Assembly: GCA_964016885.1 (NCBI GenBank)
Contig: OZ024741.1
Coordinates: 304,358,001 to 304,422,000 of the forward strand
Direction: 5' to 3'
From: Eledone cirrhosa
Taxonomy: Eukaryota
Length of the DNA stretch: 64,000 nt
Position 1 is the first letter of the stretch, and every line of letters starts with the position of its first letter. Shown one piece after another: positions 361 through 58,691 of this stretch. The translations under genes and the position numbers were made by a program. The notes under the pieces are model-generated. The model had not been told where the DNA came from. It made no database searches and worked only from the letters and a program-made list of their open reading frames with translations.

Positions 361-2150
361 TTATATATATATATATATATATATATATATTCATATATAT
401 ATATATATTCATATATATATATATATATATATATTCATATATATATATATATATATATATTCATATATATATATATATATATTCATATATATATATATAT
501 ATATATTCATATATATATATATATATATATTCATATATATATATATATATATATTCATATATATATATATATATATATATATATATATATATATATATAT
601 ATATATTCATATATATATATATATATATATATTCATACATATATATTCATACATATATATATTCATACATATATATATTCATACATATATACATACATAT
701 ATACATATATATATTCATACATACATATATATATTCATACATACATATATATATTCATACATACATATATATATTCATACATACATATATATATTCATAC
801 ATACATATATATATATATATTCATACATACATATATATATATTCATACATACATACATATATATATTCATACATACATATATATATTCATACATACATAC
901 ATATATATATTCATACATACATATATATATTCATACATACATATATATATTCATACATACATATATATATTCATACATACATATATATATATATATTCAT
1001 ACATACATATATATATATTCATACATACATACATATATATATTCATACATACATACATATATATATTCATACATACATACATATATATATTCATACATAC
1101 ATATATATATATTCATACATACATATATATATATTCATACATACATACATATATATATTCATACATACATATATATATATTCATACATACATATATATAT
1201 ATTCATACATACATATATATATATTCATACATACATACATATATATATTCATACATACATATATATATATTCATACATACATATATATATATTCATACAT
1301 ACATATATATATATTCATACATACATATATATATATTCATACATACACATATATATATTCATACATACACATATATATATTCATACATACATATATATAT
1401 ATTCATACATACATATATATATATTCATACATACATATATATATATTCATACATATATATATATATATATTCATACATATATATATATATTCATACATAT
1501 ATATATATATATTCATACATATATATATATATATTCATACATATATATATATATATTCATACATATATATATATATATTCATACATATATATATATATAT
1601 TCATACATATATATATATATATTCATACATATATATATATATATTCATACATATATATATATATATTCATACATATATATATATATTCATACATATATAT
1701 ATATATATTCATACATATATATATATATATTCATACATATATATATATATATCATACATATATATATATATATTCATACATATATATATATATATATATA
1801 TATATATATATATATATATATATATATTCATACATATATATATATATACATATATATATATATATTCATACATATATATATATATATATATTCATACATA
1901 TATTCATACATATATATATATATATATTCATACATATATTCATACATATATATATATATATATTCATACATATATTCATACATATATATATATATATTCA
2001 TACATATATATATATATATTCATACATATATATATATATATTCATACATATATATATATATATTCATACATATATATATATATATTCATACATATATATA
2101 TATATATTCATACATATATATATATATATATTCATACATATATATATATA
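361..2150. repeat. Compound (TA)n microsatellite punctuated by TTCA / TTCATAC / TTCATACATAC
   Basis: Seen directly. The long YI-rich ORFs here are artefacts of the repeat. Confidence 0.97.
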
Positions 2151-2524
2151 GACATAGAATATTCGAAAATATTCTGTATGTTTATAATAAACATTTTGAA
2201 GACCTAATCGCTATAGAATAGAATACGTCACGTATTACAATTAGATTCTCGATAAAAGCAAGGGAAGTAATCTACGCGTTTCATTCTTGTTAGAATCGAG
2301 AATGACACAGCTAGAGACTTATAGAATACTTAGCTGTGTACAGGAACTGGTTTGAAAGAGCGGTTGCCGGTCCGGCAGAAATTAGAAATTGGAATAAATG
2401 CTCTGAAATAGCGATATATATGTGAATATAGACATAGAATATTCGAAAATATTCTGTATGTTTATAATAAACATTTTGAAGACCTAATCGCTATAGAATA
2501 GAATACGTCACGTATTACAATTAG

Positions 2525-2613
2525 ATTCTCGATAAAAGCAAGGGAAGTAATCTACGCGTTTCATTCTTGTTAGAATTCATCAGGACTACATATCCAGTGC
2601 TTTTATCGAGAAT
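2525..2613 (-). ncRNA. Type I hammerhead ribozyme (retrozyme unit)
   Basis: Reverse complement of the motif at 3172-3260; tcatcag (CUGAUGA) at 2577-2583. Confidence 0.88.
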
Positions 2614-2834
2614 GACACAGCTAGAGACTTATAGAATACTTAGCTGTGTACAGGAACTGGTTTGAAAGAGCGGTTGCCGGTCCGGCAGAAATTAGAAATT
2701 GGAATAAATGCTCTGAAATAGCGATATATATGTGAATATAGACATAGAATATTCGAAAATATTCTGTATGTTTATAATAAACATTTTGAAGACCTAATCG
2801 CTATAGAATAGAATACGTCACGTATTACAATTAG

Positions 2835-2923
2835 ATTCTCGATAAAAGCAAGGGAAGTAATCTACGCGTTTCATTCTTGTTAGAATTCATCAGGACTACA
2901 TATCCAGTGCTTTTATCGAGAAT
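2835..2923 (-). ncRNA. Type I hammerhead ribozyme (retrozyme unit)
   Basis: Identical to 2525-2613; tcatcag at 2887-2893. Confidence 0.88.
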
Positions 2924-3171
2924 GACACAGCTAGAGACTTATAGAATACTTAGCTGTGTACAGGAACTGGTTTGAAAGAGCGGTTGCCGGTCCGGCAGAA
3001 ATTAGAAATTGGAATAAATGCTCTGAAATAGCGATATATATGTGAATATAGACATATATATCGCTATTTCAGAGCATTTATTCCAATTTCTAATTTCTGC
3101 CGGACCGGCAACCGCTCTTTCAAACCAGTTCCTGTACACAGCTAAGTATTCTATAAGTCTCTAGCTGTGTC

Positions 3172-3260
3172 ATTCTCGATAAAAGCACTGGATATGTAGT
3201 CCTGATGAATTCTAACAAGAATGAAACGCGTAGATTACTTCCCTTGCTTTTATCGAGAAT
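3172..3260 (+). ncRNA. Type I hammerhead ribozyme (retrozyme unit)
   Basis: attctcgataaaagca-ctggatat-gtagtc CTGATGA attct-aaca-agaat GAAA cgcg TA gattac-ttccct-tgcttttatcgagaat. Stem I is 6 bp + internal loop + 16 bp; stem II is 5 bp; stem III is the minimal palindrome ACGCGT. Predicted cleavage after GUA at 3232. Confidence 0.9.
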
Positions 3261-3481
3261 CTAATTGTAATACGTGACGTATTCTATTCTATAGCGATTA
3301 GGTCTTCAAAATGTTTATTATAAACATACAGAATATTTTCGAATATTCTATGTCTATATTCACATATATATCGCTATTTCAGAGCATTTATTCCAATTTC
3401 TAATTTCTGCCGGACCGGCAACCGCTCTTTCAAACCAGTTCCTGTACACAGCTAAGTATTCTATAAGTCTCTAGCTGTGTC

Positions 3482-55951: not shown

Positions 55952-55996
55952 AGTCACTGAAGAGGTCACAGAGTGTGTGACGAAAGAACTATGACT
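55952..55996 (+). ncRNA. Minimal hammerhead motif in Penelope pLTR
   Basis: agtca CTGAAGA g gtcaca-gagtg-tgtgac GAAA gaac TA tgact. Confidence 0.7.
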
Positions 55997-56261
55997 ATAT
56001 ATAAACAACTATCTGGTTGTGGAACCAACCAACCAACCAGAAATTTATAAATTTATAAATTTGTAAATTTATAAATATATAATAAATTGAAGTGAAAGCA
56101 ACTGGTGCGTGTGTTTCTTATTGGCAACATGACCCTCCCAAAGTATAACAATATCGGTTTCAACACACGATTTCAGATAAAGAATCTTGCTAAACAAATT
56201 CAGAAACGAAATATATATATATATATATACATACATACATATACATATGTTTATGTGTATT

Positions 56262-56718
56262 TACTGTTGATCACAAAAGATTTCTCCCTATGTACAAAAA
56301 GATGACTGTATGCTACCTGTGTGCAAAGTGCGATGCTGCATGGTAGCGAAACATGGGTTGTGACTGGAGAGAAATGAAGCAACCGTGTTCTGTTGGATGT
56401 ATAATGTAAGTGTGAGAGAAATGCAGAACTTAGATGAACTGAAGGAAAAACTGAGTTTAAGAGGAATCCGATGTGGTATGCAGGAGAGAAGATTGTATTG
56501 GTATGGACATATAATGCACTTGGACAATGATCATTGGGTGAACAAGTGCCAGGAAATGCCAGTGGAAGGAAGCTGCAGTTGAGGAAGACCAAGAAAGTCC
56601 TGGGCAGAGGTTGTGAGAGCTGACAAAGGATTGTGATGAGTGAGAGATGCTGTGCTGAGAAGGACCCATCCAACCCATGCAAGCGTGGAAAAACGGAAAT
56701 AAAAACGATAATGATGAT
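56262..56718 (+). mobile_element. RTE-clade LINE 3' fragment, degenerate
   Basis: [20 protein letters not shown]; tail cccatgcaagcgtggaaaaacgg. Confidence 0.8.
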
Positions 56719-57510
56719 AATATATGTCTGTGTGTGTGTGTGTGTATCAAAATCTCTCTACATATACTGACCTCTAAATAATACGATGTTCAGTTTTTCT
56801 TTCTCTCAGGTTGGTACCACTAGTCTGGAGAAACTGGCCAACTTGGGGTTATTTGAGATAAGATTTTCTTAAAGTCATTTGGCTCTTGTTTCTCAGAAGA
56901 AAAAGACATCACTTCAAGCTGCTCAAGCAAGTAGATTGATGTAGTGCTTAGCCATAAAATTTCAGCCCTTTTGACAGTGTTGGCTATTCGATAAAGGTTA
57001 GTTCAATACATCTTGTCAGACTACTATTGCATTCATGTAATCCAAGCACACAAACACAACACACAATTCATTCAGTTCCTTGTTTTCCTGTATCGTCAAC
57101 AATAGCTTCAATGTAAGTTATTTTCTTAATAAAAATTATTATTGTAGTGATATTTATTATCGTAGTGATATTTGTTATTGTTCATTGGATATTGTTAATG
57201 GCAGCTTTACTTTCAATCTTCGACTTTCATCTACTGACTATGGCAACGAATACAGCCACACATCTTGACTCACTGAGACACACATACTCACTTCATTTAC
57301 CATAAGTCACAAACATTCCCACAGTGCTTATATGAGAAAGAGAGAGCAATTCATGGAATCACCCATCAAGCCAACATTACTACTACAACATCTGACATGT
57401 CAAATGAACAATAATACCAAACACAAACCTTCTCTCACTGCATCAAAATATACAAACATCTCTCTCTCTCCCTCTTTCTCCCTCTCTCTCTATATATATC
57501 TATATATATA

Positions 57511-58390
57511 CAGGGTGCGGACGATATTTGTTCACAATTTTCAACTGTTAATTTTATGCAAATTTTTTTTACTTCCGTTGTCACTCTTGTCTTCATAAAA
57601 ACAGTGACTATATTTCCATTATTTATTTTCAGAATAATTGATTATGAATAATTTTGAACCTCCAAATTTGTGGAAGAGACACAGAGTTCTTGGAATCTGC
57701 GCCGGGAGAACAAATAAGACCAGAAGATCAACTCCCAGAGCAACAGGTGGCTTGCTGTCTCATCCAAAGACGTGCCCAGAGTCATGCAGACAAAGTTTCC
57801 AGCGACAACATTGGTCTTAGGAGTCGTCAGCAGTCAAGGTGACGTCATGCCACCTCACTTCTTCCATGAGGGCCTCAAGCTGAACACCGATGGCTACATC
57901 TGTGTTCTGAGCGAAGTAGTAAAGCCCTGGATCGACCAGGTAAGCCGTACGTGTGACAGCAAGACTCAGCGCCCTGCCATACCAGCCGAAAGACCCGAGC
58001 CTGGCTGTCAGAGAACTTCGTCGACCACACTTCACCTGACATCTGGCCTCCCAGCTCGCCTGACTGCAACCCCCTCGACTTCTTTGTGTGGAGCACAGTG
58101 GAACGCGACACCAACAGATCTAGCTGCAATATGAAAGACGATCTGAAGGCCAGGATCACAAAATGCCTTTAGGGGCCTAAGTCGGGGGACAGTGACGAAG
58201 GCCTGTAGCCGGTTTCGAGGCCGCCTTGAGGCCGTCCTCAAAGCCGATGGCAGGGTTCTCGAGTGAGATCGAAAGAACAAGTCATGAAGACAAACTGACC
58301 CAAGTTTCATAAATATATCTTAAAAAATAAAACTACTGTGTTATTTTTTCATAGACAGTAATCTTGCGAACAGATATCGTCCGCACCCTG
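57511..58390 (+). mobile_element. Tc1/mariner-superfamily transposon, maT (DD37D) type, internally deleted
   Basis: 27-bp TIRs cagggtgcggacgatatYtgttcRcaa (2 mismatches); TA on the left, CA on the right. Transposase remnant QQDSAPCH...WPPSSPDCNPLDFFVW has 37 residues between the last two catalytic Asp. Confidence 0.88.
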
Positions 58391-58405
58391 CATATATATA
58401 TATAT

Positions 58406-58691
58406 GTAAGTTTATCCCAGGTTCAATCGGGAGTAACCACAGTAAGTAAGGTACTCAATATAAAGCAGAGTATAAATATTTAATATAGAAAAGGCTTCTA
58501 CAGGACTAGAACTGTTTCATTCGGGAGAAATCATCAGGAAGCCGACTGTTCAAGTAATATTTTGGTATTTATATCTTTTCCTACCACCAGAAAAGATATA
58601 AATACCACCATATTAGTTGGACAGTCAGCTTCCTGATGATTTCTCCCGAATGAAACAGTTCTAGTCCTGTAGAAAAGCCTTTTCTATATTA
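58406..58691. mobile_element. Small palindromic element with two divergent hammerhead motifs (58493-58543 minus, 58628-58678 plus)
   Basis: Arms ~58481-58580 and 58590-58691; motif gcttc CTGATGA tttc-tccc-gaat GAAA cag-ttctagtc-ctg TA gaagc; flanked by (TA)n. Confidence 0.75.

Follow-up and report, generated by a model that had tools for sequence, protein, structure and literature searches.

The paired ends of hammerhead insertions in Eledone cirrhosa suggest that a non-coding retrozyme is copied by a Penelope-like enzyme

Which enzyme moves the retrozymes of animals, and how the tandem, inverted and tailed copies of Penelope-like elements (PLEs) originate, are questions stated as open in the literature, and a single stretch of the Eledone cirrhosa genome raises both. 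This stretch (64,000 nucleotides of contig OZ024741.1, forward-strand positions 304,358,001 to 304,422,000; hereafter the window) holds five hammerhead-bearing insertions, which the first-pass annotation described as inverted segments with outward-pointing ribozyme-sense strands and attributed to one Penelope-driven family of non-autonomous ribozyme elements. All five sit where they had been placed, each as a left minus-sense arm and a right plus-sense arm, and this layout of two divergent arms is genuine both in the window and genome-wide. The insertions belong to three families, not one: F1 (element 1), F2 (elements 2 and 4) and F3 (elements 3 and 5). Their parts are as follows.

362..2145, no strand, TA-rich microsatellite, left flank of element 1
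2146..3056, minus strand, element 1 (F1), short-end arm with roughly 2.9 units of 310 bp
3052..4637, plus strand, element 1 (F1), tail arm, 5.1 identical units
3196..3238, plus strand, representative F1 type I hammerhead, predicted cut after 3232
4638..5791, no strand, TA-rich microsatellite, right flank of element 1
21301..21453, minus strand, element 2 (F2), tail arm, comprising the terminal 95 nt of the unit and the 60-nt tail, without ribozyme
21445..22128, plus strand, element 2 (F2), short-end arm, last part of the GIY-YIG frame (as far as 21720), 3' UTR and hammerhead at 21936
22511..22565, minus strand, element 3 (F3), short-end arm, hammerhead at 22559
22567..22672, plus strand, element 3 (F3), tail arm, starting within helix III, tail about 70 nt
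52744..55840, minus strand, element 4 (F2), short-end arm, C-terminal RT region, CX4CxxC linker, GIY-YIG, 3' UTR and hammerhead at 52939
53343..55129, minus strand, unrelated LINE RT fragment of about 1.8 kb with a (TAA)n tail inside the left arm of element 4, putatively CR1/L2-like by its motifs
55838..55870, plus strand, templated F2 piece of 33 bp at the element 4 junction
55866..56212, plus strand, element 4 (F2), tail arm, hammerhead at 55957
58406..58585, minus strand, element 5 (F3), tail arm, hammerhead at 58537
58586..58691, plus strand, element 5 (F3), short-end arm, hammerhead at 58633, in which helix I has gained 2 nt

Searched with a descriptor of the type I hammerhead, the window yielded 12 matches, all within the five elements (ten shuffles gave 0-1 each), and the copy at 58633 adds a thirteenth. 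The ribozyme is present in every insertion, but two of the ten arms (21301-21453 and 22567-22672) have no core. Rfam returned no match at gathering score for the 310-bp unit, HH9 appearing only below threshold (23 bits against a gathering score of 52), and the microRNA matches of that search were discarded as artefacts of fold-back and TA sequence. A tail arm, previously seen in four insertions, is found in all five. The flanks are mostly (TA)n, as described, except at the left border of element 4, where a SINE-like repeat has its (GAT)n tail. Comparison of F2 with F1 and with F3 revealed no homology, and 27 nt of ribozyme core are the sole sequence common to F1 and F3.

Elements 2 and 4 do encode Penelope GIY-YIG sequence, as the first-pass annotation had it, and are truncated copies of a coding PLE, putatively of Neptune/Nematis type. 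The protein of element 4 is 97% identical to that of a full-length F2 copy (locus L107), in which a 919-aa frame carries the linker at 793 and YIGET at 832. The predicted F2 protein combines an RT with a C-terminal GIY-YIG domain, a CX2-5CxxC linker and a CCHH motif (the last read by eye); Pfam gave a weak RVT_1 match to F2 and no match to its GIY-YIG piece. Elements 3 and 5 had been regarded as non-autonomous mini fold-backs, a label we reject, since they share 78-93% identity with the terminal repeat of coding F3 copies and are non-coding because they are short. They are best classified as 5'-truncated ends of a second coding PLE, putatively of the Hydra clade. The motifs of F3 (RWR at 83, DKT at 161, CxCX5C at 612, CxxC and CxH in the EN part, and no CX2-5CxxC linker) fit the description of that clade, and its C-terminal endonuclease, hammerhead and (TA)n targets are likewise shared with it (Craig et al. 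2021, PMC8557442). The F3 unit is, however, about 4.7 kb long, with an extended microsatellite-rich 3' region, whereas the described families are mostly <3 kb. Loci L153, L154 and L155 have a hammerhead in the pLTR, a tail running into the reading frame and (TA)n targets, and the tail of element 3 is likewise the start of the next unit's reading frame. F3 is present in thousands of copies, and each of the four long copies compared has a frame break. Short hammerhead fold-backs can therefore be stubs of coding Hydra-clade PLEs, and a new non-autonomous class is not required.

Element 1 is the one insertion that stands as a non-coding element, and F1 is the only non-coding retrozyme among the window families. 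Its arms meet at 3052-3056 in a 5-nt microhomology, and the tail arm runs on for about 36-40 nt of the unit past the point where the short-end arm stops. The hammerhead, with a minimal and palindromic helix III of the dimer type, recurs every 310 bp; seven copies are intact, and the outermost (leftmost) unit has lost its CUGAUGA core through a 30-bp deletion. F1 units measure 310-311 bp, within the 150-450 bp of retrozyme tandem units, and form arrays without coding sequence that reach 27 units per arm. One type I hammerhead per unit is supported by the descriptor matches, the dimer fold and a ribozyme-closing stem that covaries across the F1 clan (10/15 pairs), and the insertions are dispersed, with target duplications of 12-13 bp (>4 bp) at the five informative loci. 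Genome-wide, 1030 tail ends adjoin TA, and F1 is a young retrozyme present at about a thousand loci. Circular F1 contigs are seen in public sequencing runs, although collapsed tandem DNA yields such contigs too, and no RNA runs were among the listed runs holding F1. In its low GC, its non-coding tandem units of about 300 bp and its single type I hammerhead per unit, F1 resembles the metazoan non-LTR retrozymes described by Cervera and de la Pena (2020, PMC7229834) and in the preprint of Li, Clavereau and Pollet (2026, 10.64898/2026.07.22.740005).

The end structure of F1 was recorded at 61 loci in C1:1-96.2 Mb (96 Mb), found by exact-match patterns and hence biased to young copies adjoining TA. 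Two arms are present at 51 of these loci (41 checked by reading the sequence, one of these incompletely, and 10 paired from coordinates alone), and in every case the arms diverge and combine a tail end with a short end that stops about 36 nt earlier; nine further loci are single-armed and one is unreadable. The same pairing holds among adjacent divergent pairs of F2 (13/13) and F3 (17/18); one F3 locus, L097, has a tail at both ends, and 26 F2 and 66 F3 ends, duplicated loci and long elements included, have no partner within 1.5 kb. A related family, F1b, gave 17 divergent and 0 convergent strand pairs among the 100 matches listed, and none of the 117 copies of four non-PLE repeats (70, 33, 7 and 7 copies; 853 kb), LINE- and SINE-like repeats included, had a divergent neighbour. 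The view that the inversion is the footprint of a mechanism which F1 has in common with PLEs is thus supported, and it is exceedingly unlikely that the inversions are assembly or long-read fold-back artefacts, as the arms are unequal, end at two different fixed sites, lie between unlike unique flanks and target duplications, and are restricted to hammerhead-bearing families.

The layout itself is already known from EN+ PLEs, in which a head-to-head inverted, 5'-truncated copy has a 30-40 bp tail at one end, insertions fall into (TA)n with 8-10 bp target duplications, and pLTRs act in trans (PMC8557442; PMC3846280). The window families have the two arms, the one-ended tail and the (TA)n targets in common with these elements. 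They differ from the published accounts, in which the tail is optional and inversion proceeds via endonuclease resolution or self-priming, by their strict pairing of tail and short ends, by tails of 36, 60 and 70 nt in F1, F2 and F3, and by junctions that are not hairpins. A link between retrozymes and PLEs has also been proposed before: in PMC7229834 and 10.64898/2026.07.22.740005, PLEs are put forward as mobilisers of metazoan non-LTR retrozymes from co-occurrence and pLTR homology, and a circular template is suggested. Two-armed divergent arrays or tails are not described in the text of these two papers that was searched, the word 'inverted' being absent from the former and occurring once, in a reference title, in the latter; nor did we find an insertion footprint on a retrozyme elsewhere in the literature searched. 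Since F1 forms two-armed arrays with Penelope-like paired ends, it is likely to be copied by a Penelope enzyme. By analogy with the coding families, then, mobilisation in trans by a PLE is the likely reading, and we consider it highly probable that PLE machinery moves F1.

The comparisons made for a coding partner covered F2, F3, two further PLE families and the F1 clan, a minority of the PLE families in the genome. Coding F3 copies match the small element at 58.5 kb (element 5), but no coding PLE was found to match the 310-bp unit: F1 shares nothing with the F2 or F3 pLTR beyond the ribozyme core, no sequence with the two further families (880 kb) among the matches listed, and its relatives have no coding partner attached in 30 clan loci of 3 kb. 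The tail of F1 is also unlike those of F2 and F3 in length, which counts against either as its partner. In lacking homology to the pLTRs of the PLEs examined here, F1 differs from the published metazoan retrozymes. Non-autonomous Chlamys elements such as MRC1 also travel as non-coding passengers of PLEs, have pLTRs and form multicopy insertions arranged head to tail, yet at the 3' end they are similar to their autonomous partners, and canonical hammerheads are absent from Chlamys (Craig et al. 2021, PMC8557442). One candidate trace of a partner, a 272-bp insert at the L056 junction, was rejected when it proved to be a sense-strand piece of a LINE 5' region, as expected of a template switch.

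The anatomy, the end pairing, the multi-unit arms, the variants shared between arms, the target duplications at five loci and the coding parents of elements 2-5 form the observed basis for the following mechanism, which on balance we moderately favour. A Penelope-type enzyme would make a staggered cut in TA-rich DNA, and both cut ends would prime reverse transcription at two fixed sites on one RNA, probably circular. Each cDNA would extend back from its own start site, on the 310-nt template circling several times, before short microhomology or templated filler joins the two cDNA 3' ends and the remaining gaps are closed. The spacing of the start sites would set the length of the tail, which measures about 36, 60 and 70 nt in F1, F2 and F3, a failure on one side would leave a single-armed copy, and F1 would borrow the enzyme of a PLE. 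Of its parts, two target-primed syntheses are probable, while towards a single monomeric circle as template we lean only slightly. Target duplications of 12-13 bp, read by eye at L036, L039, L042, L045 and L063, are visible in five loci only because most flanks are pure (TA)n. The PLE enzyme of Anolis, Poseidon PAc, cuts and extends both target strands in vitro, favouring AT-rich DNA, uses two RT start sites that bound the tail and is predicted to form a dimer (Frangieh et al. 2024, PMC11167929). A point against our reading is that its insertion in vitro did not need hammerhead cleavage (PMC11167929). The two target strands show no start-site difference in vitro, whereas the genomic copies described here point to a separate start site for each strand.

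Where the arms end inside the arrays bears on how the second arm is made. For head-to-head PLE copies whose junctions are palindromic, the published account is self-priming, in which one strand turns and copies itself (Arkhipova et al. 2013, PMC3846280); it would also place the same haplotype in both arms, and near-palindromic junctions occur in element 1, L070, L076 and L080. These are few, and F1 junctions generally form no hairpins. Self-priming predicts a hairpin turn and a second arm contained in the first, yet the longer arm is the tail arm and the short arm equally often (21 each of 42 junctions), the inner-end offsets fit a uniform spread (7/41 within 20 nt against 5.4 expected; KS p 0.89), and F2 arms of either type can hold sequence missing from the other. 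We therefore disfavour it as quite improbable. Both arms exceed one unit at 30/42 junctions, and the ribozyme site is read through: run-off at the ribozyme cut is not supported, with 2/84 inner ends within 10 nt of the site against 5.4 expected.

It is improbable, too, that F1 spreads at the DNA level or through another enzyme, such as a LINE using twin priming of the L1 type, with unequal crossover and conversion growing and homogenising the arrays. L1 twin priming, too, has two target-primed starts and leaves inverted, diverging segments whose 3' ends face outward. In L1 these segments are free of overlap and the second start is taken opportunistically, whereas the two arms described here span the same sequence from starts that are both fixed. 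Twin priming should moreover stop the first cDNA at the second primer, which is true of only 4/42 tail arms. The missing partner, the signs of unit exchange, the LINE fragment captured at L056 and the unequal-crossover growth of arrays proposed in the preprint (10.64898/2026.07.22.740005) speak for this alternative. Against it, F1 brings neither a poly(A) nor a simple-repeat tail, the LINE- and SINE-like repeats of this genome never occur in divergent pairs, and the fixed paired ends and (TA)n targets resemble those of two coding PLEs.

A closer alternative, though an unlikely one, keeps double target priming by a PLE and replaces the circle with an uncleaved linear or oligomeric transcript of the source array, or with two RNAs from one transcript. 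In favour of one template for both arms, as in our main reading, one majority haplotype runs through both arms at 25/26 loci with full units in both (chance match 0.11), several loci carry in both arms variants found at no other locus, and two insertions 1.1 kb apart at L055 retain different haplotypes. Shared haplotypes and multi-unit arms are explained equally well by an oligomer, and unprocessed RNA was the main in vitro substrate (PMC11167929). Unit-specific variants also recur within or across arms (L046, L055, L056, L070 and L080), which suits mixed oligomers; they therefore reflect post-insertion unit exchange or partly mixed-oligomer templates and weaken the argument for a single template molecule. 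On the other side, variants shared by both arms lie out of register from the outer ends at L055 and L070, arms extend to 27 units where linear-only copying should shrink arrays over rounds, the closing stem of the ribozyme covaries (10/15 pairs) and metazoan retrozymes are reported as circles (PMC7229834).

Returning to double priming on a circle, we tentatively raise the possibility that PLE insertion is symmetric, unlike LINE TPRT: a dimeric enzyme would leave 12-13 nt 3' overhangs, both of which would prime at two fixed sites of the same RNA circle, and two rolling-circle cDNAs would be joined. If true, this would produce tandem, inverted and tailed PLE copies in one step, in two PLE clades, and animal retrozymes would be true satellite RNA circles of PLEs, recognisable in any genome by their footprint. 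F1, young and with a short unit at about a thousand loci, records insertions in detail, and it makes both of the questions raised by this locus testable in simple ways: by a single start site for each target strand, a common template of the two arms and read-through of the ribozyme site.

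Self-comparison and direct reading of the window, an AT-rich and microsatellite-dense part of a 3.0 Gb genome, bore out the five insertions with inverted, outward-pointing arms reported in the first-pass annotation:

2146-4637, left arm minus-sense, right arm plus-sense: element 1, F1, a non-coding retrozyme with a 310-bp unit
21301-22128, left arm minus-sense, right arm plus-sense: element 2, F2, a coding Neptune/Nematis-type Penelope-like element (PLE)
22511-22672, left arm minus-sense, right arm plus-sense: element 3, F3, Hydra-clade PLE
52744-56212, left arm minus-sense, right arm plus-sense: element 4, F2, interrupted by an unrelated LINE fragment of 1.8 kb
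58406-58691, left arm minus-sense, right arm plus-sense: element 5, F3

All 12 sites matching a type I hammerhead descriptor lie inside these insertions (ten shuffles of the window gave 0-1 sites each), and the ribozyme core is absent from two of the arms. An extra tail, previously noted in four insertions, is present in all five. While the observation itself was thus confirmed, its interpretation as a single Penelope-driven family of non-autonomous ribozyme elements is supported in part, as the insertions belong to three families. The TA tract on either side of element 2 is also packed with repeats (20963-21276 and 22127-22195), among them a 70-bp direct repeat that flanks the element left and right, and their relatives form opposite-orientation pairs in other loci. 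Copies of a long coding repeat, initially labeled putative Tx1-like, occur in direct orientation at 28823-31837, 32975-36748, 38901-42689 and 62912-64000, two of them 95.6% identical across 3.8 kb, and imperfect palindromes without a hammerhead are found at 24302-24613, 16826-16924 and 33326-33421.

F2 is a coding PLE, in keeping with the Penelope GIY-YIG sequence first noticed in elements 2 and 4. Its ribozyme 23-mer has 16,167 exact genome matches, its tail is the first 60 nt of the following unit, and a whole unit of 4,151 bp in locus L107 carries RT, a CX4CxxC linker and GIY-YIG, with 97% protein identity to the window fragment. The N-terminal region of this unit (L107:4931-6038) contains a frame break and an asparagine/threonine-rich low-complexity stretch which resembles asparagine-rich insertions described for Penelope of rotifers (PMC3846280). 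Elements 3 and 5 had been taken for non-autonomous mini fold-backs. However, walking upstream in longer F3 copies showed that the terminal repeat and tail continue into an RT-endonuclease frame, and the window copies match the terminal repeat of coding copies at 78-93% identity; both elements are therefore stubs of a coding element. F3 (9,426 matches to a 28-mer) carries the motifs RWR, DKT, CxCX5C, CxxC and CxH, which fit the Hydra-clade description in section 11 of PMC8557442; each of four long copies compared has a frame break, and its homologue search returned 1,218 proteins among 8,000 scored, almost all without a name. A larger segment duplicated on C1 accounts for seven of the initial 20 F3 loci (L082-L085, L087, L091, L094). 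A coding Penelope match exists for element 5, in the long F3 copies; for the 310-bp unit, no partner PLE was found (two further PLE families in 880 kb; 30 clan loci of 3 kb). Two further coding PLE families lie in overlapping loci: a second Hydra-type family (L162:2469-6870), two-armed with both arms appearing to end at one sequence, and a second Neptune-type family with an asparagine-rich stretch (L152:1200-4650).

F1 shows no detected similarity to F2 and resembles F3 only across 27 nt of the ribozyme core. Its internal 35-mer has 3,699 genome matches; 11 loci account for the first 100, and in 10 of these loci a series of copies on the minus strand precedes one on the plus strand. F1 is part of a clan whose units measure 310-320 nt (7,161 matches; 65-74% identity) and share its two ends. 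Pointing to selection at the RNA level, the stem closing the ribozyme covaries in this clan, with 10 of 15 pairs changed on both sides and a score reached by none of 500 shuffles and far above slid controls, in a test on eight related sequences whose alignment also supplied the structure. In many F1 relatives the catalytic core shows a U3-A8 swap. Older F1-related retrozyme families (L156:1216-2484, L111:5569-5866, L113:6650-7113, L166-L195) have F1's two ends and divergent arms, and many of them combine this swap with a monomer-type hammerhead. A tandem hammerhead-bearing unit of ~467 bp (L113:5750-6640) is related to F1 in the ribozyme region only. Between 0.73 and 1.00 of the words of the 310-bp unit (window 3100-3540) recur in 20 public runs (X1-X20; labelled as 18 organisms, 17 studies), one containing only 4 million letters, and in each of four runs that were assembled the unit formed a single closed contig of 340 nt, at a depth of 10-128, differing at 0-1 positions and leaving no loose ends. 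The plain reading is low-level DNA of the host or its relatives; a free or shared circle is possible.

Inversion frequency and polarity in other F1 copies agree with the window. End-specific patterns located 1,030 tail ends adjoining TA in the genome, with short ends listed likewise. C1:1-96.2 Mb has 36 such tail ends, of which 27 could be matched by coordinates to a divergently oriented short end. Sequence was examined for all unpaired ends and 17 of the 27 pairs (one partly). Of 61 loci in this part of one chromosome, found by exact patterns which favor young TA-flanked copies, 51 were two-armed, nine single-armed and one ran into N. All 51 were divergent with one tail end (unit position 152-172, mostly 165) and one short end (~125-131, alignments extending to 139 through TA), and none was tail/tail, short/short or convergent; one has an 11-nt tail arm and two duplicate a single insertion. 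Among examined loci, adjacent divergent pairs likewise joined tail and short ends in 13/13 F2 and 17/18 F3 cases, the tail/tail locus L097 being the exception, and 26 F2 and 66 F3 ends had no partner inside 1.5 kb, some because the element is long or the locus duplicated, others as genuine single arms. Divergent to convergent neighbors within 5 kb among the first 100 genomic matches numbered 12:1 (F2), 6:1 (F3) and 17:0 (older F1 relatives). As controls, four non-PLE repeats had no divergent neighbors among 70, 33, 7 and 7 copies in 853 kb; the SINE-like one among them had four convergent neighbors.

We believe that these insertions probably arise by double target-primed reverse transcription, in which a PLE enzyme copies a single RNA, probably a circular one; we infer which enzyme acts, that the template is circular and how the steps follow one another. 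Two 3' overhangs at the target would each prime cDNA, giving a target duplication with both arms outward, and duplications of 12-13 bp were found in the five F1 loci with informative flanks, one at a non-TA site, the remaining flanks being mostly pure TA. The fixed pairing of tail and short ends implies coordination of the two primings, and multi-unit arms with shared variants suggest that one template is read repeatedly. Both arms exceed one unit in 30 of 42 junctions (complex locus L031 entered by its inner piece), and the longer arm is tail in 21 and short in 21. The 326 full units from 41 loci fall into 21 majority haplotypes, and of the 26 loci where each arm contains full units, all but the mixed L046 (25 loci) have a haplotype common to the two arms, including locus-private variants (chance match 0.11); two insertions 1.1 kb apart keep different haplotypes. 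Together, the duplications with outward arms, the fixed end pairing and the variants shared by multi-unit arms lead us to favor this reaction.

A hairpin turn at the junction is opposed by inner-end offsets between arms that are uniform (41 junctions, KS p 0.89), and L1-type twin priming by the small number of tail arms, 4 of 42, that stop close to the short-end site. The main rival, the same double reaction on an uncleaved multimer, seems rather unlikely to us. In five of nine loci mapped unit by unit, variants specific to certain units reappear elsewhere in the same arm or in the opposite one, implying that later exchange or oligomeric templates occur, which counts against the shared-haplotype argument. 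Of the 84 inner ends, just 2 fall no more than 10 nt from the ribozyme cut, where 5.4 were expected, which shows that synthesis runs through this site. At the junctions the arms meet through a few bases of microhomology or across short filler templated by the unit, and one junction (L056:1499-1770) carries 272 bp from the 5' region of a LINE, in sense orientation. The source is a LINE-like family whose cysteine frame is of PHD type; all but one of its 40 scored matches (39) cluster at 19-24 Mb of contig C25.

The PLE layout itself is already known. In published work, PLEs have an inverted copy, one end extended by a 30-40 bp tail, a preference for (TA)n and an undefined mechanism (PMC8557442); head-to-head forms are commonest and attributed to self-priming, with 8-10 bp duplications and pLTRs acting in trans (PMC3846280); both strands are cut and extended from two start sites (PMC11167929); and hammerheads occur in pLTRs and as opposite-strand pairs 100-700 bp apart, with a circular template proposed (PMC4209133). 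Retrozyme circles with PLEs as candidate mobilizer (PMC7229834) and retrozymes as PLE derivatives, from co-occurrence and homology (preprint 10.64898/2026.07.22.740005), have also been put forward. Neither retrozyme arrays with two arms and a tail nor strict end pairing turned up in the literature searched, and older Penelope papers and supplements may describe one or the other. What appears to be new is the strict PLE layout on a retrozyme, with arm statistics, by which the open mechanism becomes testable.
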